Positions 30,771 through 49,011 of a DNA stretch of 64,000 nt are shown piece by piece. The notes under the pieces were generated by a model that saw nothing but the letters and a program-made list of their open reading frames with translations, was not told the origin of the DNA and did no database searches. Every line of letters begins with the position of its first letter. Positions within the stretch are counted from its first letter, which is position 1. This DNA is from Escherichia phage KBNP1711: the sequence record NC_023593.1; one strand, given 5' to 3'. A program made the translations under genes and the position numbers.

Positions 30771-30812
30771 GAAAAGCCCCCAAGGATATTCTCCAAGGGG
30801 GCTTTATTTTTA
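30771..30812. terminator. bidirectional terminator at convergence of the two gene blocks
   Basis: 'aaaagccccc...gggggcttt' hairpin flanked by A-run and T-run. Confidence 0.55.
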
Positions 30813-32642: not shown

Positions 32643-32643
32643 A

Positions 32644-33180: not shown

Positions 33181-33563
33181 TCTCCAATGATTTCCATATC
33201 AAATTTATCTCCTTTCTTCGTAAGGAGTATTGCCGGTTTATCTTTACTTTTCATATACTCAAACATGTGCAGAGACCCTCTTGACTCTCCATCCCAGAAG
33301 ACTATTGCTGAGTCAGCATACTCTCCCATGTCTACGTTTCGAAGGATACCAGCTTTCTTTCCTAAGGTTGTCCAAGAAGGGATAAACCTTTTAACCCCAA
33401 GGCCGTTGTGCTTAGCAACAATCTCTCCGTGAGAGTCTGGCCCTGTTGCTCCTCCTGATACAACTTCAGTGAAGAGCTTAGGTATTTCTTTGGGGAGTAA
33501 ATCCCACATCTGAATAAAAGAAGGCCAGTCAATAGACCGGCTTCCTGCTATAATCACTTTCAT
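33171..33563 (-). CDS. SLOG/DUF2493-like Rossmann protein
   Basis: 'VIIAGSR...SGGATGPD' N-terminal pattern (recalled). Confidence 0.3.
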   Translation of the reverse strand: MKVIIAGSRSIDWPSFIQMWDLLPKEIPKLFTEVVSGGATGPDSHGEIVAKHNGLGVKRFIPSWTTLGKKAGILRNVDMGEYADSAIVFWDGESRGSLHMFEYMKSKDKPAILLTKKGDKFDMEIIGEWK

Positions 33564-33564
33564 A

Positions 33565-34206
33565 TTAAGACCCTTGGAATTCTTCTTTGTCGAAGTGCTT
33601 CTCTACCACATACTCATACAGATCTTTATACTCTGCATAACGACGGTAGAATGTACCGTGTGAGATGCCTAATTCTTTCTGAATGGAATCGTGAGGGATA
33701 CCTAAGAAGAGCATTGAGAACATGCTTGCGAGCTTCTGTGTGTCCATTGTATCACTCAAATCTTGGAAGAAGTAGAAGATACGAGATTCCATGAAAGGGT
33801 CCCCAACTGAATCATGCTTATTAACTGCATATTCCAGAGGACCTTCTGAGTAAATGTCAGGGTTGTTAAACATATCTGCTTCTGGAATAGCATAGATACG
33901 TCGATCACCAACTGTCTGTCGATTAGAACGGATAGACCAGATGATATTCTTCACACGATAGGTCATGTGCTCAATCTCTACCTCACCTTCTAGTAGAAGC
34001 TCTTCTTGCTTGGAATAGATGAAACGCCAAGCATTAAGCAACACCTCTTGAGCTACATCCTCTGCTTCATGATAGTCACGAATGTCGTACATAAAGAATT
34101 TGTGAACCACTTTCCAGTTCACCTTATAGAACTCATCGAAGGTTGGGAAGTATTTGATTGGAATACCGTGAATACGATACCGAGTAGGTGTTGTTTTCTT
34201 AGCCAC
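33565..34206 (-). CDS. ECF-type sigma factor-like protein
   Basis: Region 2-like '[16 protein letters not shown]'; region 4-like HTH '[17 protein letters not shown]'. Confidence 0.5.
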
Positions 34207-34236
34207 AAGTTATCCTTAACTTTGTTGGTTTTAAAT

Positions 34237-34446
34237 TTATACGCTGATCAAGTAAATAGCCGTTTCGGGGTTTGGTGTGTGTTGTTGTGGTGTTCCGAGG
34301 ATACGAATCCACTCATCGTTTTCTGGTTCGTAATACAACCAAGCATCTGTGAATTTGAAAGTTTTTCCAAACACTTTGTTATCGTGTTCCCAAATTACGT
34401 GAACATTTCGAGTTCCTTGTGGTAGAACTGATTGCGCTCTAATCAT
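34237..34446 (-). CDS. hypothetical small protein
   Basis: ORF track only. Confidence 0.3.
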   Translation of the reverse strand: MIRAQSVLPQGTRNVHVIWEHDNKVFGKTFKFTDAWLYYEPENDEWIRILGTPQQHTPNPETAIYLISV

Positions 34447-34706
34447 TGGATACCTCTTTCTTTCAGAGCCTCTATTAACCCGTTGTGGTTAGCAGCACAC
34501 TCTGTGTATTGGTCTTGATACCACTCTAGTGTTGTTGATAGTGCAACACCTTGTGGACCTTCTAGCATCGGTAAATCTACCCTACACTCAGCTTTTAGGT
34601 TTGTTGGTAAGGGCATTAATTGCCTGCTGTTGTCGCTCATTGAACAACTTGACATACTCATCACTAGCGCAAACATTATAAAAAACTGGCTTAGTCTTTT
34701 CATAGT
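34443..34706 (-). CDS. lipoprotein, o-spanin-like
   Basis: Signal peptide 'MKRLSQFFIMFALVMSMSSC', Pro-rich mature part; start embedded in the upstream gene. Confidence 0.35.
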   Translation of the reverse strand, partial: TMKRLSQFFIMFALVMSMSSCSMSDNSRQLMPLPTNLKAECRVDLPMLEGPQGVALSTTLEWYQDQYTECAANHNGLIEALKERGIQ

Positions 34707-34938
34707 GCATCTCTTTGTAAACTGTCTCAGTGTTCTTCTTCCAGTCTGATAGACCATTGAGAACTCTCATAGCAACCTCATCAGCTGCTTTGTTTCTCTC
34801 TATCTCTAATTCTTGCTGATGTTTCTCTTTGTCCAGATTGTTACTATCTGTTTGGTATTCGTTAAACTTCATACCACCAAAGAACACAAGAGCTGAAAAG
34901 ACGATGAACCCTAAGTTATCGCTTAACGTGTTTTGCAT
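34588..34938 (-). CDS. membrane-anchored coiled-coil protein, i-spanin-like
   Basis: N-terminal TM 'LGFIVFSALVFFGG' then charged helical region; overlaps the lipoprotein gene out of frame. Confidence 0.35.
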   Translation of the reverse strand: MQNTLSDNLGFIVFSALVFFGGMKFNEYQTDSNNLDKEKHQQELEIERNKAADEVAMRVLNGLSDWKKNTETVYKEMHYEKTKPVFYNVCASDEYVKLFNERQQQAINALTNKPKS

Positions 34939-34949
34939 ATTATCTCCAA

Positions 34950-34975
34950 CGAAAAAAGCCACCCGAAGGTGGCTA
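34950..34975 (-). terminator. rho-independent terminator (- strand)
   Basis: 'agccacc cgaa ggtggct' hairpin with U-run on the - strand. Confidence 0.5.
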
Positions 34976-34996
34976 AACTATTACAAGGAGAGATAC

Positions 34997-35737
34997 TTAG
35001 AACGGAGATTCGTCTTCTTCAAAAGTAGACTCAGGCTCACGGTCGATAGTAGGGATAGAAGCAACCGGCTCTTTCTGCTCGTTCTCAGAAGCCTTAGTGA
35101 CTTCACGACCAGCGAGAGGAATGTTCTTAGCGTCATTAGCTTGGGTAAGCAGGTTACGCTGGAATGGGAAGATTACCTGGTAAGCAGCTACGTTATCATC
35201 TGTTTCAGCATACGGTTCGAAGAAGACCAAAGGACTGCGAGCAGCAGCAACAGCTTCACGATACTTGGTAGGAATCGGAGTAATCTGTTTGATAGAATTC
35301 TTAACTTCACCAGCTTTGTTGGTGTAAGAGTTAATCAGAACGTTTACAGGCTGACCTAACAGCATTTCTTTAAACCAAGCTAAATCACCTTTCAGTGCTT
35401 GGATGCTAGGGTCAACCATCTTAATTAGGTTGAGAATACCAGAGTTCTTAGCTCGTGGGTTTACATCGAAGCTCTTAAATTGACATGCAGGGCGCGGGTC
35501 AAGAGCGTTGCCTTCAGAGTCCTTACCGGTTGCATCAACACTAATCAGTTCAAACGCCAAGTCCATACGGAAAGCTGGGTTCTTAGGAGTAACTGCTTTA
35601 GTTTTAGGGTCAACCCAAGGGTCACGATTGTGAACACCAAGACCAACAACACGAACGATACGAGCTTCGTACTCACCATCAGGGATTACGTCGTAGTTGG
35701 ATTTACGGGAAACGGACATAGTTGGGATAGAAGACAT
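34997..35737 (-). CDS. single-stranded DNA-binding protein-like
   Basis: Acidic C-terminal tail ending in Phe ('EEDESPF'), as in SSB proteins. Confidence 0.45.
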   Translation of the reverse strand: MSSIPTMSVSRKSNYDVIPDGEYEARIVRVVGLGVHNRDPWVDPKTKAVTPKNPAFRMDLAFELISVDATGKDSEGNALDPRPACQFKSFDVNPRAKNSGILNLIKMVDPSIQALKGDLAWFKEMLLGQPVNVLINSYTNKAGEVKNSIKQITPIPTKYREAVAAARSPLVFFEPYAETDDNVAAYQVIFPFQRNLLTQANDAKNIPLAGREVTKASENEQKEPVASIPTIDREPESTFEEDESPF

Positions 35738-35794
35738 ATTTTAATTTCCTTATTTAATTTAAGATTGTTGCTCACTTTGAGCGGTTATGTATAG

Positions 35795-35803
35795 TATACA
35801 TTA
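35795..35803 (-). promoter_or_regulatory. TAATGTATA motif (- strand)
   Basis: + strand 'tatacatta'; 58 nt upstream of SSB-like gene start. Confidence 0.4.
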
Positions 35804-35866
35804 CACCTATACCGATAAGAGTGCTATGTAGTATAAGCATCAGTGGTAGTAGATATTGACTACTAG

Positions 35867-35875
35867 TAATGTATA
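35867..35875 (+). promoter_or_regulatory. TAATGTATA motif (+ strand, faces away from flanking genes)
   Basis: Exact motif in the 414-bp intergenic region. Confidence 0.3.
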
Positions 35876-35970
35876 TATTGTATAGATGATAATTCTATTG
35901 CAGGCTTGTATATTGGGCAATTCTCAGAATCCCTTGCAAGTACCGAAGGGCAGGAGACACCTGCGAGATA

Positions 35971-36038
35971 AAAATAGAGAATTAAGGAATCCTTGATTTA
36001 GGTTGTGGGGACTCCTAGGGACTTTGATTCTCTATTTA
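35971..36038. repeat. inverted repeat flanking a 45-nt spacer
   Basis: 'aaaatagagaat' ... 'attctctattt'. Confidence 0.4.
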
Positions 36039-36151
36039 AAAGATTAATAATTACTTACTACCTAAATAGTTAACTAACTTACTTAAACCAAATTCAATAA
36101 TAATAGATAAAAAGATTATTCCTAAGAAAGCTAAGATGTAAAGAACATAAG

Positions 36152-36319
36152 TTACCATTCCATCATTCCTTTTAATCTAGATTCTTCTACTATTCGCTGA
36201 TAAAGTAAGTTAGATTCAGCTTGATCTTTTAATATCTTACTATATTGATCTCTGAGACTATCTTTATAAACAACAGGTGGTTTAAATAGTGATGATACCT
36301 TGTTCTTTTCTTCTTTCAT
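36152..36319 (-). CDS. hypothetical small protein
   Basis: Track ORF 36152..36403 trimmed to an internal Met. Confidence 0.25.
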   Translation of the reverse strand: MKEEKNKVSSLFKPPVVYKDSLRDQYSKILKDQAESNLLYQRIVEESRLKGMMEW

Positions 36320-36788
36320 CAAAGGTCTTCCTAATCTCTTGCAGAGATACAGCTTTAAAGTTGATTTGTTCCATCGAAGTACAGAAGTATCTCCAATCAT
36401 CAATCACATGATTATGAGTATGAGCATAGATGTTGAACTTCCCTCTCATTTCATCAGAGTGAATAGGAATGTGAGTTACCCAAAACTCTTTGTACTTGAA
36501 GTCACCTGATACAGTTCTGAACACTTTCATAATCTGTGGTAATAAATCCAGCCTGTCATGGTTCCCTAAGACAAGATGTTTCTCACCCTTAATCTCATAG
36601 ATGATATCCAGTGCATATGGTTCAAACACCCAATCACCAGTAAAGAAAGTCTTATCACGTTTAGTCACATGGTCAAACGCTGAAAGAATTGCTTTGTCAT
36701 GTTCTTCAATACTGCCGAACTGTTTACGAAACTTGCAGATGTTACGATGACCTAAGTGACCATCTCCTGCGAAATATACCTCAGCCAT
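36282..36788 (-). CDS. metallophosphoesterase (calcineurin-like)
   Basis: 'GDGHLGH', 'GDWV', 'GNHD', 'HTHNH' metal-binding motifs. Confidence 0.65.
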   Translation of the reverse strand: MAEVYFAGDGHLGHRNICKFRKQFGSIEEHDKAILSAFDHVTKRDKTFFTGDWVFEPYALDIIYEIKGEKHLVLGNHDRLDLLPQIMKVFRTVSGDFKYKEFWVTHIPIHSDEMRGKFNIYAHTHNHVIDDWRYFCTSMEQINFKAVSLQEIRKTFDERRKEQGIITI

Positions 36789-36797
36789 AGAGACCTC

Positions 36798-36998
36798 TTA
36801 GATAGTACAACCATCACATACGAAATCCCCGCTCAGGGATTCTTGTAATAAACGACTTTGTTCGTCAGATACTAGTTGATTAACTACTTTCTGTAACTCC
36901 AATAGTTGATCAAAATCTATATATTGTCCTTCCTCAAGAACGTTAGTTTCAATCCCCCATAAAAGTGATGGCATGTTTCCGCTTGCATTAAAGATCAT
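36798..36998 (-). CDS. hypothetical small protein
   Basis: ORF track; start/stop overlap with neighbours. Confidence 0.3.
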   Translation of the reverse strand: MIFNASGNMPSLLWGIETNVLEEGQYIDFDQLLELQKVVNQLVSDEQSRLLQESLSGDFVCDGCTI

Positions 36999-37219
36999 AA
37001 TGTAGTCCTTTGTTTATTATTAATAACATCCAACGCAGTGTAAGCTTTACCTGTTCCTAAGTATTCTAGAACTGGCGGACTCTTCTTTTCTTCAGCAACC
37101 TCAACGTAGGTTTTAACTTCACCTTTCAGAACTTCTTGAGAAGCAATAGCACTTTCTTCAGAGTGGTGTACAACAGTAATTACTTTCTTTCCAATCTTAT
37201 AAGTATGAACCCAAATCAT
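36995..37219 (-). CDS. hypothetical small protein
   Basis: ORF track; start/stop overlap with neighbours. Confidence 0.3.
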   Translation of the reverse strand: MIWVHTYKIGKKVITVVHHSEESAIASQEVLKGEVKTYVEVAEEKKSPPVLEYLGTGKAYTALDVINNKQRTTL

Positions 37220-37422
37220 TTAACTTCCTCAATATCAACTAATTCAAAACTTCCTATTTCTTCAAGCTGGATAATCTCTTTAACCTTCTCAACAGCTTTA
37301 ATAGGGTTTTCTTCTTCTACAACTTTACACCCTGACACTTCAAGACTACCTGTTCCACGAAGGTATAGATTTAACTTGTAGATCACTTTGTAATATTTCA
37401 TCGTATTCCCAATTTCTTTCAT
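37216..37422 (-). CDS. hypothetical small protein
   Basis: ORF track. Confidence 0.3.
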   Translation of the reverse strand: MKEIGNTMKYYKVIYKLNLYLRGTGSLEVSGCKVVEEENPIKAVEKVKEIIQLEEIGSFELVDIEEVK

Positions 37423-37591
37423 AATATCCAGAGTTGTAGTTTAGGGCGCATTTCTCGGCCTCTTCTATGTCATCTGTGTTTAGGATATTAACCCAACCAC
37501 CAACTTCATCAAAACCCTCTTCTTCTTCATTAAACCATACGCTGTATTTCTTCATCTTGATAAGACTCTTCCCCAATCTTTTACATAGCAT
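37346..37591 (-). CDS. hypothetical small acidic protein
   Basis: ORF track; start uncertain. Confidence 0.25.
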   Translation of the reverse strand: MLCKRLGKSLIKMKKYSVWFNEEEEGFDEVGGWVNILNTDDIEEAEKCALNYNSGYYERNWEYDEILQSDLQVKSIPSWNR

Positions 37592-37731
37592 CGACCGTTA
37601 ACCCACTTTGTATCTGACTTAAATTCTTGAGACAGTCTCACTTCACAATCTTCTCTACTGGCATCCCCTCCGATATCAATCAGATACAGGAATAGGGCTA
37701 TACCTAAAGCCCAAAGAATTAACTTCTTCAT
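37573..37731 (-). CDS. small membrane protein (52 aa, below track cutoff)
   Basis: Hand-translated 'MKKLILWALGIALFLYLIDIGG...'; ATGA overlap with upstream gene. Confidence 0.25.
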
Positions 37732-38120
37732 CGAATCACCAAAGGCTCATCAGAATACACAGGAGCGGCTATTTCTACAGGAGGTGCTGCTTTAAGGTCA
37801 TTGAGTCTTACACCCTTTAGCATCCCATCTAGGTGGTCCATCTTGGGGATTCCAACAGGGAAGTCATCAATCCAAATATCTACAAAGAAACCAAGCTGCC
37901 GACAAACATCATCTTTCTGTACACCATTACAAAAGATAATAGGAATCTGCAAGCACTCTGCATCAATCTTAATGTCGTGGTTGTCGTACCCATTAGGCTC
38001 TGCAAAGCGATAAGTTACGAATCGTACATCATAACCCTTCGACTGCATTAATGCTACCACAGAACGCCACAGCTCTTTATCAGAGGTGTAGGTATCATCG
38101 TAATCTAAACCAATGTTCAT
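37728..38120 (-). CDS. HAD-like phosphatase (putative)
   Basis: N-terminal 'GLDYDDTYT' (DxDxT motif). Confidence 0.35.
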   Translation of the reverse strand: MNIGLDYDDTYTSDKELWRSVVALMQSKGYDVRFVTYRFAEPNGYDNHDIKIDAECLQIPIIFCNGVQKDDVCRQLGFFVDIWIDDFPVGIPKMDHLDGMLKGVRLNDLKAAPPVEIAAPVYSDEPLVIR

Positions 38121-38134
38121 ATCTAATCCTTAGA

Positions 38135-38160
38135 CAAGAAAAGCCGCCCGAAGGCAGCTC
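38135..38160 (-). terminator. rho-independent terminator (- strand)
   Basis: 'gctgcc ttcg ggcggc' hairpin plus 'ttttctt' on the - strand. Confidence 0.5.
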
Positions 38161-38166
38161 TTTAGT

Positions 38167-38364
38167 TTATGCTTCTTGTTCTTCTGGCTCTTCAGCATTC
38201 AGCTGTTCCAGTCGATCATTCTCAATACTCAGATCGATAACTACACCAGTGAGTTCTACTACAGCCTGACGCAGTGCATCTTTACCCATCGAGTTAACTT
38301 GGGTCATGAAGAATGCTTTACCTTCTTCTGTGGATAGGGTTTCTTTAAGTTCAATAGGGGTCAT
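38167..38364 (-). CDS. hypothetical small acidic protein
   Basis: ORF track. Confidence 0.3.
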   Translation of the reverse strand: MTPIELKETLSTEEGKAFFMTQVNSMGKDALRQAVVELTGVVIDLSIENDRLEQLNAEEPEEQEA

Positions 38365-38711
38365 TTATTATCTCTCATAAATTCGGGTCACTGTACCACC
38401 CGCAGCTTCTACTTGAGCTACGAATGAATCACGCTCTTCATCTGTATAAACCAGCTCATTCAGGAACGTTCCTTCAGAGTCTTGGTACAGGATGTTCCAC
38501 TTAGGCAGGGGCTTACGGATCAAGTCCATCATTCTTTATCCTCCCGTTCTTTCCACAGTTGGGCTAGTTCTAAATAATACTCAGCTTCGTCAGTGCGTCC
38601 TTGTTCTTTACAGATGCTATACTGACGGAAGCACCAATCTGAAGGTTGCTCTTCCACTTCCTTGTCTCCTTGAGAAGTAATCAATAAGACTACTTCATTT
38701 GTTTTTCCAAT

Positions 38712-38903
38712 TCACTCTTCCATTTGAGGAATCTCTAAATGCTTTATAGAGAAGTTTTTATTTGGGAAAGTCTTTATTAGCCAAGCTGCTTCTTGGATAG
38801 CTTTGTTTTCTTTCTCGTAAATACAAAGCCGAGAATCCAATGAAACAATCCTCCCGGTTTCGCTGAAGATAGCCCATGTTTTGTATGTGTAAGTAGGTGT
38901 CAT
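38712..38903 (-). CDS. hypothetical small protein
   Basis: ORF track. Confidence 0.3.
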   Translation of the reverse strand: MTPTYTYKTWAIFSETGRIVSLDSRLCIYEKENKAIQEAAWLIKTFPNKNFSIKHLEIPQMEE

Positions 38904-39275
38904 TTATTTCTCCAACACCGAGATGCTATATCTATCGTGTAAGGTTTTTCTAACCCAAGCAATGCGTTTAGGGTTTTTGTGATGAGAGCCTGTGTAACGT
39001 TCTCTGTGGTATGTGTCACAACCGAAAGGGTATACCGGGTCCTCAAACCCTTCGTGTTCAAACATATACGTCAGATCATTAAAGTCCGTATGTTTTGTGA
39101 AGAAGTAATAGCTTTTATAACAACGGTAGTTGAAACACAAACCGTGCTCAGGACTGAACCATTTTGGGTATTCGTCTGTCTGAGAGATGTTATAATACTG
39201 GAGGAGGAAATCCTCCATCCCCCTTTCTTTGGCAATACATCTTAGTGTTCGGTAAATAATGTTACTTTGTTTCAT
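38904..39275 (-). CDS. hypothetical protein
   Basis: ORF track. Confidence 0.35.
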   Translation of the reverse strand: MKQSNIIYRTLRCIAKERGMEDFLLQYYNISQTDEYPKWFSPEHGLCFNYRCYKSYYFFTKHTDFNDLTYMFEHEGFEDPVYPFGCDTYHRERYTGSHHKNPKRIAWVRKTLHDRYSISVLEK

Positions 39276-39284
39276 TGTGAATTC

Positions 39285-39766
39285 TCAATGTGTGTGATTC
39301 CAGTTTAATCCTATCTGACAATCAGATGCCAGAGGACATTCCATCTTGAGGTACTCACCAGCTTTCTTAACACAAAGCTCTGTAAGCTCTTTTAGCTTTT
39401 GTGCATCATTACGGTGAACAGAGAACTGCCCTTCATCGTGCATGTCAATAACCTTCGCACAACGAACACCATCACGCTCAATCCACTTGTTAAGGAAAAG
39501 CATGGCATACTTCATAACAATCGCACCAGCACTCTGTAATAGGGTATTCAGTGCTTTATGAACCATTACCTTACCTGTTGCATCACGTCTCATTGTAACA
39601 CGACGACCATCAACACCCAAGATATAACCTTGAGCTGCCTTCTCTGTCATACGTTCAATAAGAATTGCAATACAAGGATTCTCTGCCAAGAAACGTGCTC
39701 TCATTACTGCACCTTCTTCAGAGCCTCCACCAACGATAGAACCGAGCTTAGCATCACCTGCCCCAT
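39285..39766 (-). CDS. DNA polymerase (family A), exon 2
   Basis: 'GAGDAKLGSIVGG...ALNTLLQSAGA...HDE' matches the T7 DNA polymerase C-terminus; frame open upstream of track start 39704. Confidence 0.7.
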
Positions 39767-40547
39767 CAATAGTTCAAGCAAAGGCGCTACTCTTTGCTCC
39801 GTTCTCTTATGAACTGCTTACAGTTTCCTGTAAGATCGGACTATATCTTCATCTCCACCTTTACGTGCTGAGAGACAGGCGCTTCCGTAACACTTGTTAC
39901 GTACTCCCTTCCGGGATAGTCTCTGAACTTTCCGTGACACAAACTTTTCTACATAGATCAATGAACTGAGCATCAGATAGTTTACCTTTTGCATTATTCA
40001 CTTCCCAAGTTACCCATTGGACATTTCCAATTTCGTAACCTTTCGAATTATCCTTCCTATCTAAAGAAAGTTTATTCGGATGTCCGCTGACGAAAGATAG
40101 TGAATCTCCTGTCAAGGCACATTTGTAGTTTTGCTGAGAAAGAAGCTCGAATAAATAGTCTTGAGTAATCGTGAACTCAAAACCCCTTTCTCTAGCTCTG
40201 TGATGGGAGTTGTGATATCTCTCACGAACCGCTCCACCCCAAGTTTGTCGATATTGTCCCATAGCAGCAGATGCTGCACTTCTGTTTCGACGTCTCCACT
40301 CATTTGAAGCAATGAGAGCACAATTTTTTACATTGACATTGCTTTCCATCTTTACTCTTAGATGAATTATGGAAACTGTCGAGTGGCTTTTCTTCGCCAC
40401 AGCTTGAACATATCTTTGTCATAAACACCTCCTTGTGTTGATGTTTATGTCACGGCTTAGCTGCTGATTGGCATATCTTTCGACTTAGCTTTCCAGCAAT
40501 TCACCTGTTTTGCTTCTGCACATTTCTATGCAGTGAACCAATTATTT
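39767..40547 (-). mobile_element. group I intron (putative) interrupting DNA polymerase motif B
   Basis: Exon 1 ends on U, intron ends on G; splicing restores 'KTFIYAFNYGAGD'. Confidence 0.55.
39897..40400 (-). CDS. intron-encoded HNH homing endonuclease
   Basis: 'SLDRKDNSKGYEIGNVQWVTWEVNNAKG' HNH-type motif; ORF lies within the intron. Confidence 0.6.
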   Translation of the reverse strand: MAKKSHSTVSIIHLRVKMESNVNVKNCALIASNEWRRRNRSAASAAMGQYRQTWGGAVRERYHNSHHRARERGFEFTITQDYLFELLSQQNYKCALTGDSLSFVSGHPNKLSLDRKDNSKGYEIGNVQWVTWEVNNAKGKLSDAQFIDLCRKVCVTESSETIPEGST

Positions 40548-41910
40548 AGTTAAAGGCATATATAAATGTCTTCGCATTGTCACGAGTAGGAAGACCAGCA
40601 AGTCTCTGATTATGAGAATGGATATCACCTTCTAACAGAATATCACGATACATAACAGCAGAAGCTAAACCACGTTCAGCTAATGCTTTCTTACCAGCGT
40701 TACCTTCTGCAATTGCTTCAGCAAGCATGTCTCTACACTCTTTAATGAGGTAGTGAGCAAGCATACGAAGCTCTAATCCAGAACCATCATAACCTAGGAA
40801 GAGTTCTCTACCAGCTGGTACATAATACTTATATAACCCTACTGGTTTGTCTTTCTTTCCGGGTTTTCCACGTTCGTAGATAACGTTTGTATTTTTTCGT
40901 AAGTAACACCCATCAGGGATATTGTTGGTAATGATGAAAGGATAGTTATGACTATCATCTGTGGAGTAGTTAGATTGAAATAAACTCCTACACTCGTGAC
41001 CAAACAGACCGCGAGAAGGAATATTAACAACAATGCGATGTTTAAAACGAAATGTCGGAGTAGCGCAGCTATTAGCTTCCGCTGAGAGTTTACCATCTGG
41101 ACGTTCCTTATCAATCAGTCCATTAATCAAGCCTAGTCTGTGAGCCGCTACAACACGTCTCTTAAGCAGACTTCCCACCTTACCTAGATCACCCTCAAGA
41201 CCTTCTTCAAGAGTCTCTTCGAGGTTTGTAGGAGCTGTGGGCCACTTGTTCGAAGTAGCTAATGCTCTCTTAATTTCATCAAAGGTTACAGGTTTCTTCC
41301 TGTTAGGGTTTAAACCTAAACCAAAGACATAAGCCTTCATGTAGTTGACAGTTTTGTGACGAAAGTGCTTATCCAAGAATTTCTTGATATCAGCATCAAC
41401 CATCTGAGCTGTCTGTCGCTCTTTCTCATTGCCACGCATCCAAGAGTTGTACCATTCTTGATACGTTCCACACTTACGCAAGGCTCGCTTAATCTCAAAT
41501 GTGTTCCAAGGCTTCTTAGATGTATTAAATTCTGGAGGAAGAAAACCTTCATCCATCAGTGCTTCTTTAACTCGTGCATCCTTTGATGGGTCAAAGTCAA
41601 CATACTCAACACAAGTAAAAGCTCCACCGATATCTTCCCTCTTTAACCCCACTCTGTCACAATATAATTGAGGCCACTTCTGAAGAGCACCAGTCTTCTT
41701 AAAGGGTTTCATGTAAGTAGAACCATCAACCCTCATCTTAGGTAACAGAGGAATCAGCTCTCTGTCGATGTTAACGATAATCTCTCTGAGAAGGTGAACA
41801 TACCACCGTGCATTCCTCCGATTAAAGTTGACACCACTCTTCGCTTGCTTTGAAATTATATCAGCGACAGTCATCTCCGTTAAGAACGGAAGTACATCAG
41901 GGTTCTCCAT
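40548..41910 (-). CDS. DNA polymerase (family A), exon 1
   Basis: Motif A 'DGSGLELRMLAHY'; start of motif B 'RDNAKTFIY'; AAGGAG RBS. Confidence 0.7.
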
Positions 41911-41925
41911 CACCCTCTCCTTTTA

Positions 41926-42303
41926 TTATCGGTATAGTAAATCTGTAAACGCTTGGTTGTCTGCTATTACGTCCAAAGCCTCATCCGTGCTAGGAACTTC
42001 AGTTGCTTCCACTTGGTACGCAACTTCACGTACACGGAAAGCTCTTGCAGGAACCCTAAAGTCTGCATGTCTCTCCATAACATCTTTCTGAACCTGTGCA
42101 AGCTTCATACCCCACACTTCTTCATAAAGCTCTGGATGTTTGTTACTAATAACTACATACTGACGGTGTATGGATTTTGACTCTCTGACCTTAGCTAGTA
42201 GATCATTAAATAGATCTAACTCTTCTTCTGAGAGCGCATCTACAACGTCTTCCCACTTCTCTACACAGAAGCGGTGGGCATGTCTGATAGGTAATGGCAT
42301 CAC
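41926..42303 (-). CDS. hypothetical protein
   Basis: ORF track. Confidence 0.35.
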   Translation of the reverse strand: MMPLPIRHAHRFCVEKWEDVVDALSEEELDLFNDLLAKVRESKSIHRQYVVISNKHPELYEEVWGMKLAQVQKDVMERHADFRVPARAFRVREVAYQVEATEVPSTDEALDVIADNQAFTDLLYR

Positions 42304-42582
42304 TCACCCCTTAGGAAAAGGAATCAACAAATCAACTGCTGCTTGAATATCTTCTTGCACTTTAGGGTTTTTGTAAGAAACAAAACGGCCTTTGCTGTCT
42401 CGAAGCATCACATTAGTGCGGGCAGTTTCTTTAAACATTAAGATATTTTCAGCGGCATCCCTCTCTTCCATCATACCAAAATCCATAATATCTTCTGGAG
42501 CTGAGGCGATTTTGAGCTTGAAGGTCTGGCCTGTGCCGTTGTCGTAACGATCACTGATCTGGATAGTTTTCACCAGAGACAT
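42304..42582 (-). CDS. hypothetical small protein (tandem paralogue 1)
   Basis: Shares 'ARTNV.LR...G.F.SYKN..V...........L.PFPKG' with 42584..42841. Confidence 0.4.
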   Translation of the reverse strand: MSLVKTIQISDRYDNGTGQTFKLKIASAPEDIMDFGMMEERDAAENILMFKETARTNVMLRDSKGRFVSYKNPKVQEDIQAAVDLLIPFPKG

Positions 42583-42583
42583 A

Positions 42584-42841
42584 TTAAACTCCTTTAGGGA
42601 AAGGAAGAAGATTTTCTACTGCAACACGATAAACCTTTTCTACGTTTTTGTTTTTATAAGAGATGAACTTGCCATCAGCACCACGAAGGATTACGTTAGT
42701 TCGAGCTGTCTTTGGGTTATGAGAAATCTGATTAGCAATGATAGACGCGTTAAGAGCATTCTCAGCATAATTAGTGAAGTTCCATTTAACAAGTTTAGTA
42801 GAAAGAGAATCGATGATAGTTACAGTTTTTACGATAGACAT
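42584..42841 (-). CDS. hypothetical small protein (tandem paralogue 2)
   Basis: Paralogue of 42304..42582. Confidence 0.4.
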   Translation of the reverse strand: MSIVKTVTIIDSLSTKLVKWNFTNYAENALNASIIANQISHNPKTARTNVILRGADGKFISYKNKNVEKVYRVAVENLLPFPKGV

Positions 42842-42865
42842 ATTTTATTACCTAAAGGATTTGTA

Positions 42866-42895
42866 TAAAAGAAAAGGCCACCCAAATGGGTAGCC
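42866..42895 (-). terminator. rho-independent terminator (- strand)
   Basis: 'ggctaccc attt gggtggcc' hairpin plus 'ttttctttt' on the - strand. Confidence 0.5.
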
Positions 42896-42900
42896 TCTGA

Positions 42901-43215
42901 TTAACTTGAGCTTAAAGCCCCTTTGCGACCGCCAGCTGATTTTCCAGCGCGATCTCCACTTTTGCCGCCAGCTGAACGATTTCCGCTGACTGTCTCAACA
43001 CGTAAGTTGCTTGACGCATTAGAGCCTCCTGATTTAATGGCTCGTTTGTGTCCGACATCTTTACCTTTGAGTGCAGATTTTCCAACGCGTTTTTCAACGA
43101 TGCGACGTGCACGGTGGCGCTGAGCATCTCCGCTCTTACTTCCAACTCCCGTTTCACCTCTTGCGATGGCTGTACGTCTTTCTTGTGCATAATCTCTTTT
43201 AGCCTTATCAGTCAT
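42901..43215 (-). CDS. basic Gly/Ser/Lys/Arg-rich protein (possible nucleic-acid-binding)
   Basis: Strong AAGGAG RBS; TAATGTATA motif 37 nt upstream. Confidence 0.45.
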   Translation of the reverse strand: MTDKAKRDYAQERRTAIARGETGVGSKSGDAQRHRARRIVEKRVGKSALKGKDVGHKRAIKSGGSNASSNLRVETVSGNRSAGGKSGDRAGKSAGGRKGALSSS

Positions 43216-43251
43216 TTACAACTCCTTAATATATCAGTGTACACTAAGGAG

Positions 43252-43260
43252 TATACATTA
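43252..43260 (-). promoter_or_regulatory. TAATGTATA motif (- strand)
   Basis: + strand 'tatacatta' upstream of 42901..43215. Confidence 0.45.
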
Positions 43261-43286
43261 TGAGAGGGTAGCTTTAGTTGCCAGCT

Positions 43287-43472
43287 TTAGTCACACCACC
43301 CTGTAGGTGGTACAAAAGTGTCAGGAACATCAATAATAGTTGGTTCACCATCATTTACACAGGTATCTTCATTAAATTCTTCACACTCAAAACATGCTTG
43401 TTCAATGTTTTTGTAGAAGTCAATGGTAGAAGTACCATCACCACAGTCTCGGATAACTAGGGCAACTTGCAT
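43287..43472 (-). CDS. hypothetical small Cys-containing protein
   Basis: ORF track. Confidence 0.3.
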   Translation of the reverse strand: MQVALVIRDCGDGTSTIDFYKNIEQACFECEEFNEDTCVNDGEPTIIDVPDTFVPPTGWCD

Positions 43473-44213
43473 TTAATTACCACCCTTTTCCATAGCTTTA
43501 ACGATTGCTTTACAGAAACCAGAACGAACAATATCATCTGAGTCGCCATCAACAATATCAGCGAACTCGTACAGGTCGTGATCGTCAATGAACTCAGTAG
43601 CCCAAGTAAGACCGCTCTCTCGGCCTTTCATATCGTGCTGGTTAGTGTCACCCATGCAGAACAGCTGGGATGTTTCACCCAAGCGAGTCATAATAGAGAA
43701 TGCTTCATCTTTGGTTGTATTCTGGAACTCATCCACAATAACAATGGCATCATTGAAAGAGCGACCACGGAGATATTCCAGAGGCACAAACTCAATGTTC
43801 CCATTACCAAGCTGACATTCATAGAAACCTTTACCATACCGCTGAGTGATTACATCAACAATAGGCATCAGGTATGGTTCGAACTTATCACGAAGCCCAC
43901 CCGGAAGTAATCCAAGAGAGTTACCCATGCCAACAGAGGGTCGGCTAATGATAATCTTTTGAATCTTACCACTCTTCAGTGCATCAATGACAGTAGAGGT
44001 GATGACGAACGTCTTACCACAGCCCGCAGGAGCGTCTGTGAACACCACTTGTTTAGTCTTGATAGCATTGAGTAGCTCAGATTGAAACTGATTCTGAGGG
44101 ACCACTGGCTTCGCTAAAACAACCTCTTCATACTCACGCTTACCTTTCTTAGTGACTAAGGCTTCACGACGTAAATCTTTACGAGATTCTCTACGGGACT
44201 GTCTACGGCTCAT
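43473..44213 (-). CDS. phoH: PhoH-like ATPase
   Basis: Walker A 'DAPAGCGKTF', Walker B 'IVIVDEFQN'. Confidence 0.7.
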   Translation of the reverse strand: MSRRQSRRESRKDLRREALVTKKGKREYEEVVLAKPVVPQNQFQSELLNAIKTKQVVFTDAPAGCGKTFVITSTVIDALKSGKIQKIIISRPSVGMGNSLGLLPGGLRDKFEPYLMPIVDVITQRYGKGFYECQLGNGNIEFVPLEYLRGRSFNDAIVIVDEFQNTTKDEAFSIMTRLGETSQLFCMGDTNQHDMKGRESGLTWATEFIDDHDLYEFADIVDGDSDDIVRSGFCKAIVKAMEKGGN

Positions 44214-44395
44214 TTTCGCTCTCCTAGCTCTTCGTAATTAAATACAGAGGTTCGACAATCTTTACATGTTGTTGTATAGACCCGAACATTAATGAACTTC
44301 TTGTTCTTCCCTTTGGTGGGTGAGCCTTTAGCAAGCTCGCTGATAACTTTAGAACTTAAGTTTAGGTTTGTTCCTTCACATTTAGAACACTTCAC
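44210..44395 (-). CDS. small zinc-ribbon protein
   Basis: 'CSKCEG...CKDC' paired CxxC. Confidence 0.35.
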   Translation of the reverse strand: MKCSKCEGTNLNLSSKVISELAKGSPTKGKNKKFINVRVYTTTCKDCRTSVFNYEELGERK

Positions 44396-44558
44396 TCCGG
44401 CTCACCAACAGTAACATCCCATACAACTTGGGAGATGATGTTGTTAATCTGTTTGATTTGCTCGTGAGTCAGTTGCATACCTTTCATTTTCCGAGAGGCA
44501 TTACTTCGTGCTCTTCGCTGACGATAGAAGTTATTCTTTTTAGTAGAGTGTAAGCTAC

Positions 44559-44744
44559 TCATTTCACAACCTTAAATTTGAATGTTGTTGGGTGATAATA
44601 ATGCAACCTGTTAATGGTGTGCTTTGTTTCAAGATATGTCCTACAGGAGTGACACATAACATGAGACAAACCAGTCACAGGATTGGGCTTAAAATTGATG
44701 ATAGTCTTCTCTTTCTTACAGAAGCTACACACTTTCTTATCCAT
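44559..44744 (-). CDS. small zinc-ribbon protein
   Basis: 'CSFC...CHSC' paired CxxC. Confidence 0.35.
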   Translation of the reverse strand: MDKKVCSFCKKEKTIINFKPNPVTGLSHVMCHSCRTYLETKHTINRLHYYHPTTFKFKVVK

Positions 44745-44892
44745 CTTCTCTCCTGCTAATCCTCTGAGTTGTGGGAACAGCAGTATTCACATACTCCACA
44801 ACAAGGACAAATCTCTACACTTGGGTCATATGCATCATCAACTGTCATCCCACACTTGGTGCAGAACACATCATCATCATCTTCTTCCAATA

Positions 44893-45549
44893 TTAATTCT
44901 CCAAAGTTTTCTTCAGAGCTGCCCACGAGATTGGGTAGAGTTTAGCCATCTCTTCATCCAGAGATTGAGCAAACACTCGAACTTCGTATTGAGCGTGAGA
45001 GGAGAGTCGCTGACGACACAACTCAAACCAGCCATACAAAGAACCAGTCCACACCCACTCAGTGATCATTCCCTGAGGAAGAACAAATCGAGCTTGCTCT
45101 GGTGCAACGAATTCAATCAACTTGTCATATGCTGCTAGAGAGGCTTCATATGCATCGTTAATCAACATTAATGCTTCAGCTCGCTCTCCATCAATGAGTT
45201 GAACCCCTGAACCTGCATGGAGGTCCGAAGGTCTCGCAAAAATCTCTTTAGGGATGAAGACTTCAACTGCTCCATCTTTATACCTCCGGGACATTTCGTT
45301 CCACGAGAATCCAACCTGATGCTTGCCCAGCTGTCTCGCAATTGCGATAGGTGCTTTGCATCGGAAACTGACTTGCGGGTGCCTGAAAGGCGTGACATGC
45401 TTCTCTCTTGCGAGGAAGTTGATGAGACGTTCATCACGTTCATTTAAATCACCTTCACGGGTTACGCCAAAGGAAACTCGAGCTGCGTTTACTACGCTAC
45501 GATCACTTCCCATAGCTTCGATTAATGTTGCTTGTAATTGTTCATTCAT
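44893..45549 (-). CDS. thyX: flavin-dependent thymidylate synthase (ThyX family), atypical RHR motif
   Basis: Matches recalled Thermotoga ThyX ('AARVSF','KAPI..ARQ','S.RY','SHAQ.E'); has KHQ where RHR is expected. Confidence 0.65.
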   Translation of the reverse strand: MNEQLQATLIEAMGSDRSVVNAARVSFGVTREGDLNERDERLINFLAREKHVTPFRHPQVSFRCKAPIAIARQLGKHQVGFSWNEMSRRYKDGAVEVFIPKEIFARPSDLHAGSGVQLIDGERAEALMLINDAYEASLAAYDKLIEFVAPEQARFVLPQGMITEWVWTGSLYGWFELCRQRLSSHAQYEVRVFAQSLDEEMAKLYPISWAALKKTLEN

Positions 45550-45564
45550 CCGTGAATTTCCTTA

Positions 45565-45774
45565 TTAATATTCTTTTACATAATAAACCACTAAGGTTCC
45601 CATCTCTGACAATGTTGATTTATGTAAGCTTACTTTACTATAAATCTTTGGAGCCATCTTAAGAGCCTTCTTAAAACGGCGAGCATCTTTACGAGTAGCA
45701 AAGTGCTCTGTAACAGGTATAGACAGATCTTGGTAGATATAATATACCACCGTCCAATATTTTTTCATAATCAA
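45565..45774 (-). CDS. small protein, member of a 4-copy paralogue family
   Basis: 'W.V........F.TRK(D/E)AR..KK...' and C-terminal YY shared with 47631..48267. Confidence 0.4.
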   Translation of the reverse strand: MIMKKYWTVVYYIYQDLSIPVTEHFATRKDARRFKKALKMAPKIYSKVSLHKSTLSEMGTLVVYYVKEY

Positions 45775-46043
45775 ACACCTAGGGCAGTAGTTAAGAATGC
45801 TTTCAGGTTTGCTTCAGTCTGCATACCAGAGATGCTGTAGTGTGCACCACTGTTACGGTCAGGCACAACGAAAGCAGGGATACTTCGTACACCATACTTA
45901 ACAGCTTGTTCACGACCATCACCTTCAAGGATATTAATCTCTTCCACTTCTACATCAAACTCCTTAACAACCTTCTCAAAGGTAGGAGCCATTGCTTTAC
46001 ATGGAGCACACTGATCACTATAAAACTTAATTACTTTACTCAT
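45771..46043 (-). CDS. thioredoxin-like protein
   Basis: 'CAPC' active-site dithiol; AAGGA RBS before internal Met (track ORF to 46097). Confidence 0.6.
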   Translation of the reverse strand: MSKVIKFYSDQCAPCKAMAPTFEKVVKEFDVEVEEINILEGDGREQAVKYGVRSIPAFVVPDRNSGAHYSISGMQTEANLKAFLTTALGV

Positions 46044-46233
46044 TCTATTCCTTGTTAATAAACAGGTTGATATGATGCTGGGTAGCAGGAACAACAATAA
46101 AAGATTTATACTGACCTTTTGCTAAGTCATGAGCAATCTTCTTTGTCTGACCAAGACCCATCACACAGCCGCTAACGATAATGGCATGTGCTTGTAATTC
46201 TTCAGGTAGGTTTAGTTTCACTCTTTGGATTCC

Positions 46234-46419
46234 TTATAGCATACAAAGAATAATAACAAGAGGTAGTGTTATAGCAAAATGTACCAGAACAACACTACCT
46301 AGCTTGATAGCTTTAACATCCTCTTCTGCTGGGTTTTCTTTAATTGCTAAATTTCGAGCTTTATATATAACAGTACCAACTATTAACGACCACACGGCCC
46401 ACACAATCAGTGAAATCAT
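46234..46419 (-). CDS. small two-TM membrane protein (paralogue 1)
   Basis: Two hydrophobic segments; similar to 46429..46608. Confidence 0.35.
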   Translation of the reverse strand: MISLIVWAVWSLIVGTVIYKARNLAIKENPAEEDVKAIKLGSVVLVHFAITLPLVIILCML

Positions 46420-46428
46420 ATCAAACCC

Positions 46429-46608
46429 TTATGCAGTCCACAGGTGGAGAAGGAAAGGAATCACAATAGTACAAACTACCAGAGCGATGCTGCCATGTTT
46501 AATAGCTTTAGCTTCACTTGGATTTTCTTTAAGCATCTGCTTCTGGGCCAGATAGACGATACCACCAATAATGATTGCCCAAAAAGACCATACGATTGCT
46601 GAAAACAT
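46429..46608 (-). CDS. small two-TM membrane protein (paralogue 2)
   Basis: 'MFSAIVWSFWAIIIGG...KENPSEAKAIKHGS' resembles 46234..46419; track ORF trimmed to internal Met. Confidence 0.35.
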   Translation of the reverse strand: MFSAIVWSFWAIIIGGIVYLAQKQMLKENPSEAKAIKHGSIALVVCTIVIPFLLHLWTA

Positions 46609-46669
46609 ATTCACATCCTTATAAAGAAGTTCGCCCCACCTCGGATTAGGAGACAGGGCGGAGGTTTGA

Positions 46670-47254
46670 TTAGTAAGACACGTCACCACTGGAGTGGGAC
46701 ATGTTGCTCTTGACGAAGTAACAGAACTTTCCAAGACCTTCATTAATTTCTTGAAGCATACTCTGATCAACTGGATAGGTGCACAAGTCTGAATCAAACT
46801 CGTCCATCTTCTCAATGATACACATAAGAGTCATGCACATGTCAGAAAGCATACCGTCCATGTCGAGATCAGCGTTACCTTCTCGGAACCAAGCACAACC
46901 AAGATAGCTACTAGCTGTTGCATCCACTTTAATGCAGTGATAACGCATTCGCTCTGCTACCCGATCACCAGTTTCACGAGCATAATCTTCTAGTTCATCG
47001 AACATACCGTGAACACCTTGGAAACCAGCTCCAGAGACGTTCCAGTGATAGTTCTTTGATTTGATGTGTAGAAGTTCAAGGTTAGCCTGCACACCACACA
47101 GGATGTGCTCTAGGCTGTTACCGCTAATCAATTTATTCATTCCCTCTAGACGAGAGATAGAAGAGTCAGTTGTAGAGAATGGGTTGCTAGAACCCACTCG
47201 TGTCAGTTCAGGTAAGTCGAAGACATTATTATGCATTAGGTTCATCTCCTTCAA
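46670..47254 (-). CDS. Dps/ferritin-like protein
   Basis: 'ANLELLHIKSKNYHWNVSGAGFQGVHGMFDELEDYARETGDRVAERM' resembles the Dps di-iron site helix pair. Confidence 0.45.
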   Translation of the reverse strand: MKEMNLMHNNVFDLPELTRVGSSNPFSTTDSSISRLEGMNKLISGNSLEHILCGVQANLELLHIKSKNYHWNVSGAGFQGVHGMFDELEDYARETGDRVAERMRYHCIKVDATASSYLGCAWFREGNADLDMDGMLSDMCMTLMCIIEKMDEFDSDLCTYPVDQSMLQEINEGLGKFCYFVKSNMSHSSGDVSY

Positions 47255-47558
47255 GCTCAGTAGAGTTAGCTACATTTCGTTCCAGATTTGAGATTACCTG
47301 TTGGGTGATAACGATGCAGTTCTGTGGGTCAACTGACTTAGAACGTCCCATCTCAGGGTCATACACCTTAACACGTTTTGCTGTAGAACCAGTTACCTGT
47401 AATACCTTGAGAAGATAACCCTGATTCCCGATAGACCATGCAACAACATCACGATTCTTGATGAATCGACCAAGCATATCACGATGATAGAACTGCTGCA
47501 TAACCTTTGATTTATTAATCTCTTCGGCTGGCGGAGCCACTTTACTCAAATCTAACAT
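47229..47558 (-). CDS. hypothetical protein
   Basis: ORF track; variant AAATGTATA motif about 40 nt upstream. Confidence 0.35.
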   Translation of the reverse strand: MLDLSKVAPPAEEINKSKVMQQFYHRDMLGRFIKNRDVVAWSIGNQGYLLKVLQVTGSTAKRVKVYDPEMGRSKSVDPQNCIVITQQVISNLERNVANSTELEGDEPNA

Positions 47559-47630
47559 TTCACTCTCTCCTGTTTAACACAATATTCTTATACTGTATAT
47601 ACATTTGAGAGTGATCATATCTACTACCAA

Positions 47631-47840
47631 TCAGTAGTAAATTACTTTAGACATAAAAGAACCAGTGTTAGGGTCTTCATGCCAGCGATGTATGTCAGCG
47701 CTTTTTACTATTGTGCCCAGAGTCTTCAACTGTTTCTTAGCAATACGAGCCTCTTTGCGAGTGTCAAACAATTTGATGTTATCTTTTCTCATATGTTGCT
47801 CAAGATCCCAAACAACATGAATAGCCCACATCTTTTTCAT
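47631..47840 (-). CDS. small protein, paralogue family member
   Basis: Tandem array member. Confidence 0.4.
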   Translation of the reverse strand: MKKMWAIHVVWDLEQHMRKDNIKLFDTRKEARIAKKQLKTLGTIVKSADIHRWHEDPNTGSFMSKVIYY

Positions 47841-48055
47841 TAGTAATGTACCTTTCCGCTGATATAAATACGGCCTGAGGTATACTCATAGCCCTTGAGA
47901 ATCTTAACAGAGGTAGTGGAGCCATCGTTTAGTGCACAGATTGACTTCTTAAGATTGCGTGCATCTTCTCGTGTCTTCTGGTAGGTCATGGTCACACCCC
48001 CACTCTTCCACTCTGTTTTAACTAACCAAACTATTTTCATAAGACCTGCTCTCAT
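47840..48055 (-). CDS. small protein, paralogue family member
   Basis: Tandem array member. Confidence 0.4.
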   Translation of the reverse strand: MRAGLMKIVWLVKTEWKSGGVTMTYQKTREDARNLKKSICALNDGSTTSVKILKGYEYTSGRIYISGKVHY

Positions 48056-48997: not shown

Positions 48998-49011
48998 TCT
49001 TATTCCTTATG

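Follow-up and report, generated by a model that had tools for sequence, protein, structure and literature searches.

A probable mobile group IA2 intron within the motif B tyrosine codon of the DNA polymerase gene of Escherichia phage KBNP1711

Group I introns with nuclease genes of their own have been known from the family-A DNA polymerase genes of phages since SPO1 (1990), and the SPO1 polymerase intron with I-HmuI and the T4 td intron with I-TevI both interrupt essential genes of DNA metabolism. Loss of autonomous mobility in an intron that still splices is a stage that such elements usually go through. PMC3428280 lists the polymerase intron sites known at its time as 674 (SPO1, SP82, Bastille and Pf-WMP3), 676 (phiL7) and 881 (PhiI and W31, after Bonocora & Shub 2004), and a motif B intron in Pseudomonas phage LUZ24 is attributed to Ceyssens 2008 in PMC6083498. 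Here, we analyse an interrupted polymerase locus, all features of which lie on the minus strand, in a stretch of 64,000 nucleotides from Escherichia phage KBNP1711 (NC_023593.1; hereafter the window). In our view this locus is best explained, with a probability of roughly 0.9, by a mobile, self-splicing intron of subgroup IA2 inserted in an essential family-A polymerase gene, inside the codon for the motif B tyrosine.

The region belongs to a kuravirus-like coliphage. Its identity is 98.3% to Escherichia phage KarlSchell_Bas89 (PQ850613; hereafter Bas89) and 80-84% to about 78 other Gordonclarkvirinae coliphages (Kuravirus and Nieuwekanaalvirus), and the intron is present in only 2 of 81 related phage records. 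Exon 1 is collinear with the polymerase of phage EP335, which is encoded by a single uninterrupted coding sequence (CDS). It starts at ATG 41910, the equivalent of which is annotated in Bas89, one codon after GTG 41913, where the program-listed open reading frame (ORF) begins. An earlier note, made from the letters of this DNA, had described that ORF (40546..41913) as ending in a stop midway through motif B, and this is indeed the case on the minus strand: it terminates with '...RDNAKTFIYAFN' (over a longer stretch, '...LPTRDNAKTFIYAFN') immediately before the UAA at 40548..40546, which ends translation of the unspliced RNA. Exon 2 holds the rest of motif B and motif C (HDE). Its frame is open upstream of the Met at 39704, where it reads 'IDGAGDAKLGSIVGG...', and it matches Pfam DNA_pol_A (PF00476) over positions 220-380 (E 1.6e-16) and T7 gp5 (E 4e-30), in agreement with the T7 collinearity claimed in that note. 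Joining U40548 to A39766 gives AAC U/AU GGG (the slash marks the junction), that is N-Y-G, within the nucleotide sequence ...TTTAACT/ATGGGGCAGG... and the protein sequence '...KTFIYAFNYGAGDAKLG...'. The Tyr-Gly of motif B is thereby restored as had been proposed, its Tyr corresponding to Y530 of T7 and Y766 of E. coli Pol I.

The boundaries of the insert are fixed by EP335, the exons of which are approximately 98% identical to those of the window. This phage lacks exactly 40547..39767, 781 nt where some 780 had been estimated, and reads ...GCGTTCAACT ACGGAGCAGG... across the site, with ...TATGCGTTCAACTACGGAGCAGGTGATGC... as the intron-less target sequence; the junctions predicted before are therefore exact, as are the terminal U of the 5' exon (U40548) and the terminal G of the intron (G39767), and alignment to this intron-less homologue confirms the insertion site. 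Because EP335, 98% identical in its exons, is without exactly these 781 nt, the insert is not a product of chance. Precise excision restores the host reading frame, and the ORF spliced in silico (1845 nt, 614 aa) has the same length as the EP335 polymerase, with which it is collinear and from which it differs at 5 aa. The exons are intact and under purifying selection, and the nearby differences are all synonymous (16 of 16 nucleotide differences from EP335 between -95 and +31, 8 of them within -29..+4). Two other classes of insert were rejected: an intein, given the UAA at the junction and the stops of the insert in the exon frame, and a group II intron, given that an Rfam E-value scan of the region returned only group I and that the ORF encodes a nuclease.

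Could the polymerase instead be naturally split, with two polypeptides that assemble, a free-standing nuclease gene between their genes and no RNA splicing? GenBank lists two separate CDSs in Acinetobacter phage KEN_01, in LUZ24 (there as 'part II') and in phage PAS59, and an ATG is available at 39704. However, the break falls inside the codon of the invariant motif B Tyr, the first downstream ATG lies 21 codons past the junction, so that the GAGD...GG segment would be lost, removal of exactly 781 nt gives a protein collinear with that of EP335, and covariation, as described below, supports a full group I core in the intervening RNA. We consider a split polymerase most improbable.

The evidence for a group I intron comes from Rfam, folding and covariation. 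An Rfam E-value scan of 39600..40700 with RF00028, the gathering threshold of which is 50 bits, yields two half-matches flanking the ORF: a 5' half (P1-P6) at 40557..40259 with 34.7 bits and a 3' half (P6'-P9) at 40074..39817 with 48.1 bits. The window as it stands gives only half-matches because the ORF splits the covariance model. Escherichia phage LAMP (MG673519) carries the insert as an ORF-less 304-nt sequence with 0 mismatches to the window, and this copy gives a single full-length match with 100.8 bits (E 6.6e-27). The catalytic core P3-P8 with its P3/P7 pseudoknot is thus recognised above threshold in the LAMP copy, identical to the window throughout the 304-nt core, so that the Rfam support foreseen in the earlier note was obtained in full from LAMP and by halves from the window itself. 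Unconstrained minimum free energy (MFE) folding of the 304-nt core recovers P2, P3, P4, P5, P6a (13 bp), P7.1, P7.2, P8, P9 and P9.2, with an MFE of -95.3 kcal/mol compared with -68.7 +/- 5.2 kcal/mol for dinucleotide shuffles (z = -5.1). The 5' exon ends in a U that forms a U.G wobble in P1 (U40548.G40539), and the intron ends in the omega-G, G39767, at a boundary independently set by EP335. PMC3428280 gives as marks of subgroup IA2 a G-U-A-containing linker that joins P7.1 and P7.2 and an ORF in P6a; in the window the linker is AGUA and the ORF sits in P6a.

Metagenomic homologues of the intron-encoded nuclease (66-86% identity) lie on contigs that carry diverged copies of the intron at the same position of the polymerase gene (L016-L018, L019-L021, L023 and L024). 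Five ORF-trimmed cores were aligned and evaluated against an 85-pair structure that includes the P7 pseudoknot. Standard pairs occupy 97.9% of the cells, as opposed to 30-40% when the 3' partners are slid by 1-3 columns, and 17 of the 85 pairs are changed on both sides, as opposed to 0-2 with slid partners; the observed values were attained in none of 500 shuffles. The helices are thus supported by compensatory substitutions, which are found in P1 (one pair, A-U to C-G, beside the splice-site pair), P2 (two), P3, P6a, P7.2 (four), P8, P9 (three) and P9.2 (three). The splice-site U.G pair is invariant in the five diverged copies, and P4, P7 and P7.1 are invariant across the copies and therefore uninformative either way. 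In L023, P6a has a wholly different sequence (CCACUUUAGCAC/GUGCUAAAGUGG) and is still perfectly paired around the ORF. Taken together, the intron-less allele, the Rfam model and the covariation bear out the group I assignment made in the earlier note. A decayed, splicing-defective intron in a polymerase pseudogene of a defective genome would be in keeping with a broken nuclease gene, a weak P10 and scores below the Rfam threshold for the window as it stands, but the 304-nt core is without mismatch to LAMP or Bas89, which are propagated isolates dependent on this polymerase, the intron differences from Bas89 are confined to the ORF segment, and the exons are intact and under purifying selection, which makes such decay hardly credible. 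The coordinates of the exons, the intron, its helices and the nuclease gene are listed in Table 1.

Table 1. Features of the interrupted polymerase locus; positions are those of the window and all features lie on the minus strand.
Feature	Position	Remarks
DNA polymerase exon 1	40548..41910	454 codons and the first base of the Tyr codon
5' splice site	40546..40548	U40548, last exon base; with intron A40547 and A40546 an in-frame UAA
Intron	39767..40547	781 nt; begins AAAUAAUUGG, ends ...CUAUUG with terminal G39767
DNA polymerase exon 2	39285..39766	the remaining two Tyr-codon bases, followed by GAGDAKLG...NWNHTH and stop
P1	40551-40546 with 40541-40536	AACU/AA paired with internal guide sequence UUGGUU
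P2 hairpin	40533-40528 with 40521-40516	CUGCAU / GUGCAG
P3	40508-40502 with 39881-39875	
P4	40498-40493 with 40467-40462	
P5	within 40489-40471	GAAA loop
P6	40461-40460 with 39928-39927	
P6a	40455-40443 with 39944-39932	5' strand CCGUGACAUAAAC, 13 nt
P7	39921-39916 with 39844-39839	GACUAU/AUAGUC; pseudoknot
P7.1	39915-39913 with 39908-39906	CCC/GGG
P7.2	39901-39896 with 39891-39886	CGUAAC/GUUACG
P8	within 39873-39852	
P9	39834-39828 with 39823-39817	GAAA loop
P9.1	39814-39810 with 39776-39772	
P9.2	39797-39792 with 39783-39778	
3' half of catalytic core	39839..39944	Rfam, folding, covariation
Local hairpin	40420..40449	CAUAAACA (40449..40442) / UGUUUAUG (40427..40420); predicted by folding
Nuclease gene, 5' part, original frame	40300..40422	Cys-rich N-terminus MTKICSSCGEEKPL...QCQCKK; premature stop 40302..40300
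A6 homopolymer, +1 frameshift	40324..40329	A5 in Bas89
Nuclease gene, 3' part, shifted frame	39897..40323	beta-beta-alpha-Me domain and tail; stop UAA 39899..39897
Segment missing from LAMP	39961..40437	477 nt; part of the insert outside the ribozyme core

In the proposed mechanism, which is that of standard group I chemistry, the pre-mRNA would fold into the P1-P9.2 architecture and an external guanosine would attack after U40548, held in the U.G wobble by the internal guide sequence. Next, the terminal G39767 would occupy the G-binding site in P7, and ligation of the exons would produce the mRNA for the 614-aa polymerase. RNA that escapes splicing would be translated up to the UAA straddling the 5' splice site, yielding a 454-aa product that lacks both motif C and the Tyr-Gly of motif B. 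The gene for a 174-aa nuclease of the HNH superfamily (beta-beta-alpha-Me) lies in the terminal loop of P6a; in intact copies such as that of Bas89, this nuclease most likely cuts intron-less polymerase alleles during co-infection, whereupon recombinational repair would copy in the intron together with short flanking exon tracts.

The nuclease gene that the earlier note had placed at 39897..40400 is present, but that ORF covers only the downstream frame of a broken gene; its real start is ATG 40422, six bases after the Shine-Dalgarno sequence AAGGAGG (40434..40428), and it is frameshifted by an extra A at 40329..40324, so that the window holds no uninterrupted nuclease reading frame. Deletion of one A gives a 174-aa protein, which differs at a single residue from the product of the uninterrupted 174-codon ORF of Bas89. 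Were the A6 run a programmed +1 slippage site, ribosomal or transcriptional, expression of the nuclease would be very low rather than abolished: a +1 shift on UGU AAA AAA UUG would, by inspection, read ...C-K-N-C-A..., the Bas89 sequence; phage introns as a rule express their nucleases weakly, and here a hairpin already covers the start site. In all other copies, however, the gene is in a single frame, no stimulatory element was seen, and six A's are shorter than the runs usually tied to efficient transcriptional slippage, and we regard programmed slippage as very improbable.

The local hairpin predicted at the start of the gene buries the start codon (40422..40420), presents the Shine-Dalgarno sequence AAGGAGG in its loop and takes up part of the 5' strand of P6a, and is hence mutually exclusive with P6a. 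Folding predicts a counterpart in each of the diverged copies and in unrelated upstream introns, with either the Shine-Dalgarno sequence or the AUG buried. Competition between the hairpin and P6a probably keeps translation of the nuclease low, so that ribosomes do not unfold the ribozyme. At its other end, the last ~21 codons of the gene overlap P6a', P6', P7 and P7.1 and extend into P7.2, and translation and ribozyme folding should therefore exclude each other. The last ~10 residues of the protein, encoded by P6', P7 and P7.1, are of low confidence and seem to be set by the RNA and not by the protein. A sigma-70 promoter scan found sites no more often than expected by chance and none in the intron upstream of the nuclease gene.

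The designation of the ORF as an HNH endonuclease in the earlier note holds at the level of the fold, which is the beta-hairpin-plus-helix metal finger of the HNH type, with PacI (PDB 3M7K/3LDY) as the closest solved structure. PacI shares only 18-21% sequence identity with the nuclease and, in contrast to it, is a restriction enzyme and not intron-encoded. The family assignment came only from this fold comparison and from PHROGs, among which phrog_1035, labelled 'endonuclease VII', is the best match (2e-43) and several HNH-labelled families also match. Pfam searches with the 167-aa listed ORF and the repaired 174-aa protein returned no HNH match (a sub-threshold Stc1 hit was the only one at E<=1), NCBIfam gave no match to the nuclease, and a PDB sequence search gave no meaningful match to any chain. 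The residues conserved in the family are Q97, C101, S119, D121, R122, Y129, N133, N142 and K145, with S119, D121, R122, N133, N142 and K145 invariant, and no conserved His is found at the usual general-base position. The motif of the catalytic domain, S119-L-D-R122...N133...N142..K145, is thus neither a canonical H-N-H, the H...N...H/N pattern recognised by curated HNH profiles being absent, nor the DHDH of Endo VII. Homing endonucleases with an Endo VII motif (the F-CphI family) have DHDH and a CX2-4C/CX2C zinc site, with D40, H41, H43 and N62 conserved, as described in PMC6083498. An Endo VII-type enzyme was ruled out, the alignment showing S-L-D-R rather than DHDH and Pfam Endonuclease_7 giving no match. 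The nuclease may be a PacI-like beta-beta-alpha-Me enzyme in which S-L-D-R...N...N..K replaces the catalytic His, and may represent a distinct family of homing endonucleases. A profile search collected over 6,400 relatives, of which hardly any carry a Pfam annotation. Many members of the family examined (P0001-P0122) are 300-400 aa long, and their consensus shows the whole module ('...KCALTG...SLDRIDSSKGY..N.QWVHK.IN.MK...') twice in tandem.

Several points weigh against a functional, mobile intron. Whether scanned in halves or within the whole window, the intron scores below the Rfam gathering score, the full score being that of the LAMP copy. P10 is essentially absent, with about 1 bp at most by inspection, and is not conserved between copies. 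With both the canonical HNH histidine and a Pfam or NCBIfam match absent, catalytic competence of the nuclease is not assured even in intact copies. Splicing, its GTP dependence and cleavage by the nuclease are all inferred. Lastly, the extra A may be a homopolymer sequencing or assembly error. The phage would then have its 174-aa nuclease gene intact, in an intron with full mobility. In favour of an error, only one A is added, in an A5/A6 run of the sort where errors typically arise; the gene is intact in Bas89 and in every metagenomic homologue (P0001-P0005); and the repaired protein is one residue away from that of Bas89. On the other hand, decay of the nuclease gene is common after fixation of an intron, the gene is missing entirely from LAMP, and frameshifts in intron nuclease genes have been reported in Bastillevirinae (PMC11878797). 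Look-ups of the exact exon products of the window gave no record. We consider an error unlikely, though well short of negligible.

The distribution of the element argues for mobility. In Bas89 the insert differs from that of the window by 3 substitutions and a 1-nt indel, and GenBank joins two pieces into one 'DNA polymerase I' CDS and lists a 525-nt 'endonuclease' CDS within it; the LAMP polymerase is likewise annotated as a joined two-piece CDS. Although the LAMP exons differ from those of the window by approximately 16-20%, the flanks of its intron are near-identical, with 2 mismatches in 55 nt upstream and 0 in 21 nt downstream. An identical core in divergent exons is the pattern that would be expected from recent homing with short co-conversion tracts, and the patchy distribution, the higher identity of the intron than of the exons and the short near-identical flanks are all found here. 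The synonymous differences from EP335 that cluster at the site fit co-converted donor sequence, divergence of the target site, or both. LAMP has also kept the codons for D155-L-C-R-K-V, part of a C-terminal helix (F153, I154, C157, V160) whose conservation extends to distant, probably free-standing homologues of the nuclease; its ORF-less intron is therefore most simply a deletion derivative and not ancestral. The nuclease gene is thus intact in Bas89, frameshifted in the window and deleted in LAMP, and the intron is missing from EP335. These alleles together resemble the classical gain-decay-loss cycle of homing elements, in which the intron of the window must still splice and has probably lost its autonomous mobility through the additional A. 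As all four states occur in closely related, culturable coliphages, they form a natural test series for intron homing and decay.

Alignment to T7 gp5 is ungapped through PTRDNAKTFIY(A/G)F(N/L)YGAGD and identifies the split codon as that of T7 Tyr530; the Klenow offsets (established numbering 324-928 of the 605-residue fragment) place it at Tyr766 of E. coli Pol I, with the intron between nt 1 and nt 2. In the same numbering, the intron of the T7-like Yersinia phage Berlin lies after nt 2 of the Phe760 codon, 17 nt upstream of this site, that of LUZ24 after nt 1 of the Tyr762 codon, 12 nt upstream, and that of KEN_01, by our own reading, after codon ~763, 7 nt upstream; the PAS59 intron and the second intron of the metagenomic scaffold L016 lie in a different motif, motif C, between His881 and Asp882. 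The earlier statement that introns 'at this site' occur in T7-like phages thus stands for motif B, where Berlin has one, but not for the position, and the PhiI and W31 introns are reported at 881. As judged by these alignments, the insertion position of the window is distinct from that of every polymerase intron placed (674, 676, 760, 762, ~763 and 881), and no described intron at the Tyr766 codon was found in the searchable papers. Sequence comparison points to motif B of family-A polymerases as a recurrent, multi-position intron target, and a 19-nt motif B 'hot spot' may accept at least four intron positions. We regard as evenly balanced the two readings that the intron protein represents a distinct, uncharacterised homing-endonuclease family and that the Tyr766 codon is a previously undescribed insertion point within this 'hot spot'.

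A number of further arrangements were observed in other polymerase genes. In L019 (a contig from Logan SRR25400274; 2150..3660) and L023 (960..2470), motif B contains two tandem group I introns with a mini-exon of 17 nt between them (TATCTACGCATTTAACT in L019). Of the two, the upstream one occupies the Phe760 codon, as in Berlin, and has a 161-166-aa nuclease ORF, and the downstream intron is the homologue of that in the window. A different group I intron of kuravirus polymerases, within VIDMH/DEGQF and with a 131-aa Pfam HNH_3 ORF, is present in PAS59 (OQ921332; L004, 1650..2260), where the pieces are annotated as unrelated 'hypothetical proteins', and in L016 (4005..4590), which has this intron as well as a copy of that in the window and thus a polymerase in three exons. 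In KEN_01 (vB_Ab_1137_KEN_01, PP841126; L005, 2440..3160), the polymerase annotation consists of two separate CDSs on either side of an HNH gene. The DNA itself reads as a related motif B intron of subgroup IA2 (KPRAFA/NQYGAS) with a canonical HNH nuclease and looks like a mis-annotated intron, and five sibling Acinetobacter phages match likewise. Outside polymerase genes, the annotation breaks the major capsid gene of the crAss-like phage cr128_1 (NC_055885; L006, 147..3303) into three pieces, with a 'homing endonuclease' and an 'HNH endonuclease' in between, and the second insert is a 75% match to the 3' core of the window's intron, which suggests two group I introns in this gene. The 43-nt P3-P4-P5 segment GAATTGCTGGAAAGCTAAGTCGAAAGATATGCCAATCAGCAGC (window 40504..40462) occurs exactly in nine IMG/VR viral contigs (L007-L015). 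These were ruled out as copies of the insertion described here, being other small introns in other genes, the P1/P2 and guide sequences of which differ. An ORF is lacking from most of them (215-300 nt), and two or three occur in some contigs. The catalytic core appears to be common to introns that target different genes.

Two observations concern the neighbourhood of the intron. At 40609..40642, 61-94 nt upstream of the 5' splice site on the minus strand, third-codon-position substitutions (40609, 40612, 40615, 40618, 40636 and 40642) separate the window from Bas89 and EP335, and the first five also from LAMP; this looks like a small recombination patch from an unsampled donor. At 42304..42841, likewise on the minus strand, two adjacent ORFs of 92 and 85 aa look like paralogues, both containing '...ARTNV.LR...G.F.SYKN..V...' and ending 'L.PFPKG'. 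In Bas89, a single gene of this kind occupies the corresponding place, and a free-standing HNH endonuclease gene absent from the window (Bas89_0051) follows it.

The intron is an ordinary representative of a well-known kind of selfish element, near-identical copies of which are already annotated as split CDSs in two GenBank records, and it leaves the current understanding of group I introns unchanged. No description of this intron was found in the searchable literature on phiEco32, Gordonclarkvirinae, Kuravirus and KarlSchell, and the BASEL paper mentions only 'homing endonuclease insertions'. Modestly new are the insertion position, unreported in the papers searched, the frameshifted nuclease allele, the evidence for a motif B hot spot and the large uncurated nuclease family to which the results point. 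For annotation, the locus shows that routine covariance-model searches miss introns whose ORF sits in a peripheral loop: at gathering threshold, an Rfam scan of the whole window (1..64000) is empty despite a bona fide group I intron. Without splicing, an essential polymerase seems to end after 454 aa, and in several related GenBank records such polymerases are still given as two unrelated CDSs.

Among known systems, the T4 td and SPO1 introns resemble that of the window in that they open with a stop codon and loop out, from a peripheral helix, a nuclease ORF whose 3' end overlaps the core, and in that RNA structure restrains translation of the nuclease, as proposed here. They differ in their host genes or sites (SPO1 at 674) and in their nucleases, I-TevI being of the GIY-YIG type and I-HmuI a canonical HNH enzyme with NUMOD domains. 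The PhiI and W31 introns, as summarised in PMC3428280, share with the window subgroup IA2, an HNH-type ORF in P6a, a family-A polymerase gene and an enterobacterial podovirus as host, but are reported at 881 in motif C and not at 766, and the window is continuous there (VIDMHDEGQF). It is PAS59 and L016 that have an intron at that reported site, between H881 and D882, with a canonical HNH_3 nuclease gene. The group I introns of Berlin and LUZ24 also carry nuclease genes and interrupt the same O-helix/motif B segment of family-A polymerases, and their 3' cores are related to that of the window (...GATATAGTC...CAGTTCATAAGAGAACGG...). Their nucleases, however, are of the Endo VII (DHDH) type, that of Berlin having VVDHCRTKGNVRGLLCHNCN, unlike the nuclease of the window. 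The introns of Bas89 and LAMP match that of the window in gene, insertion point and intron sequence, and differ from it in the state of the nuclease gene.

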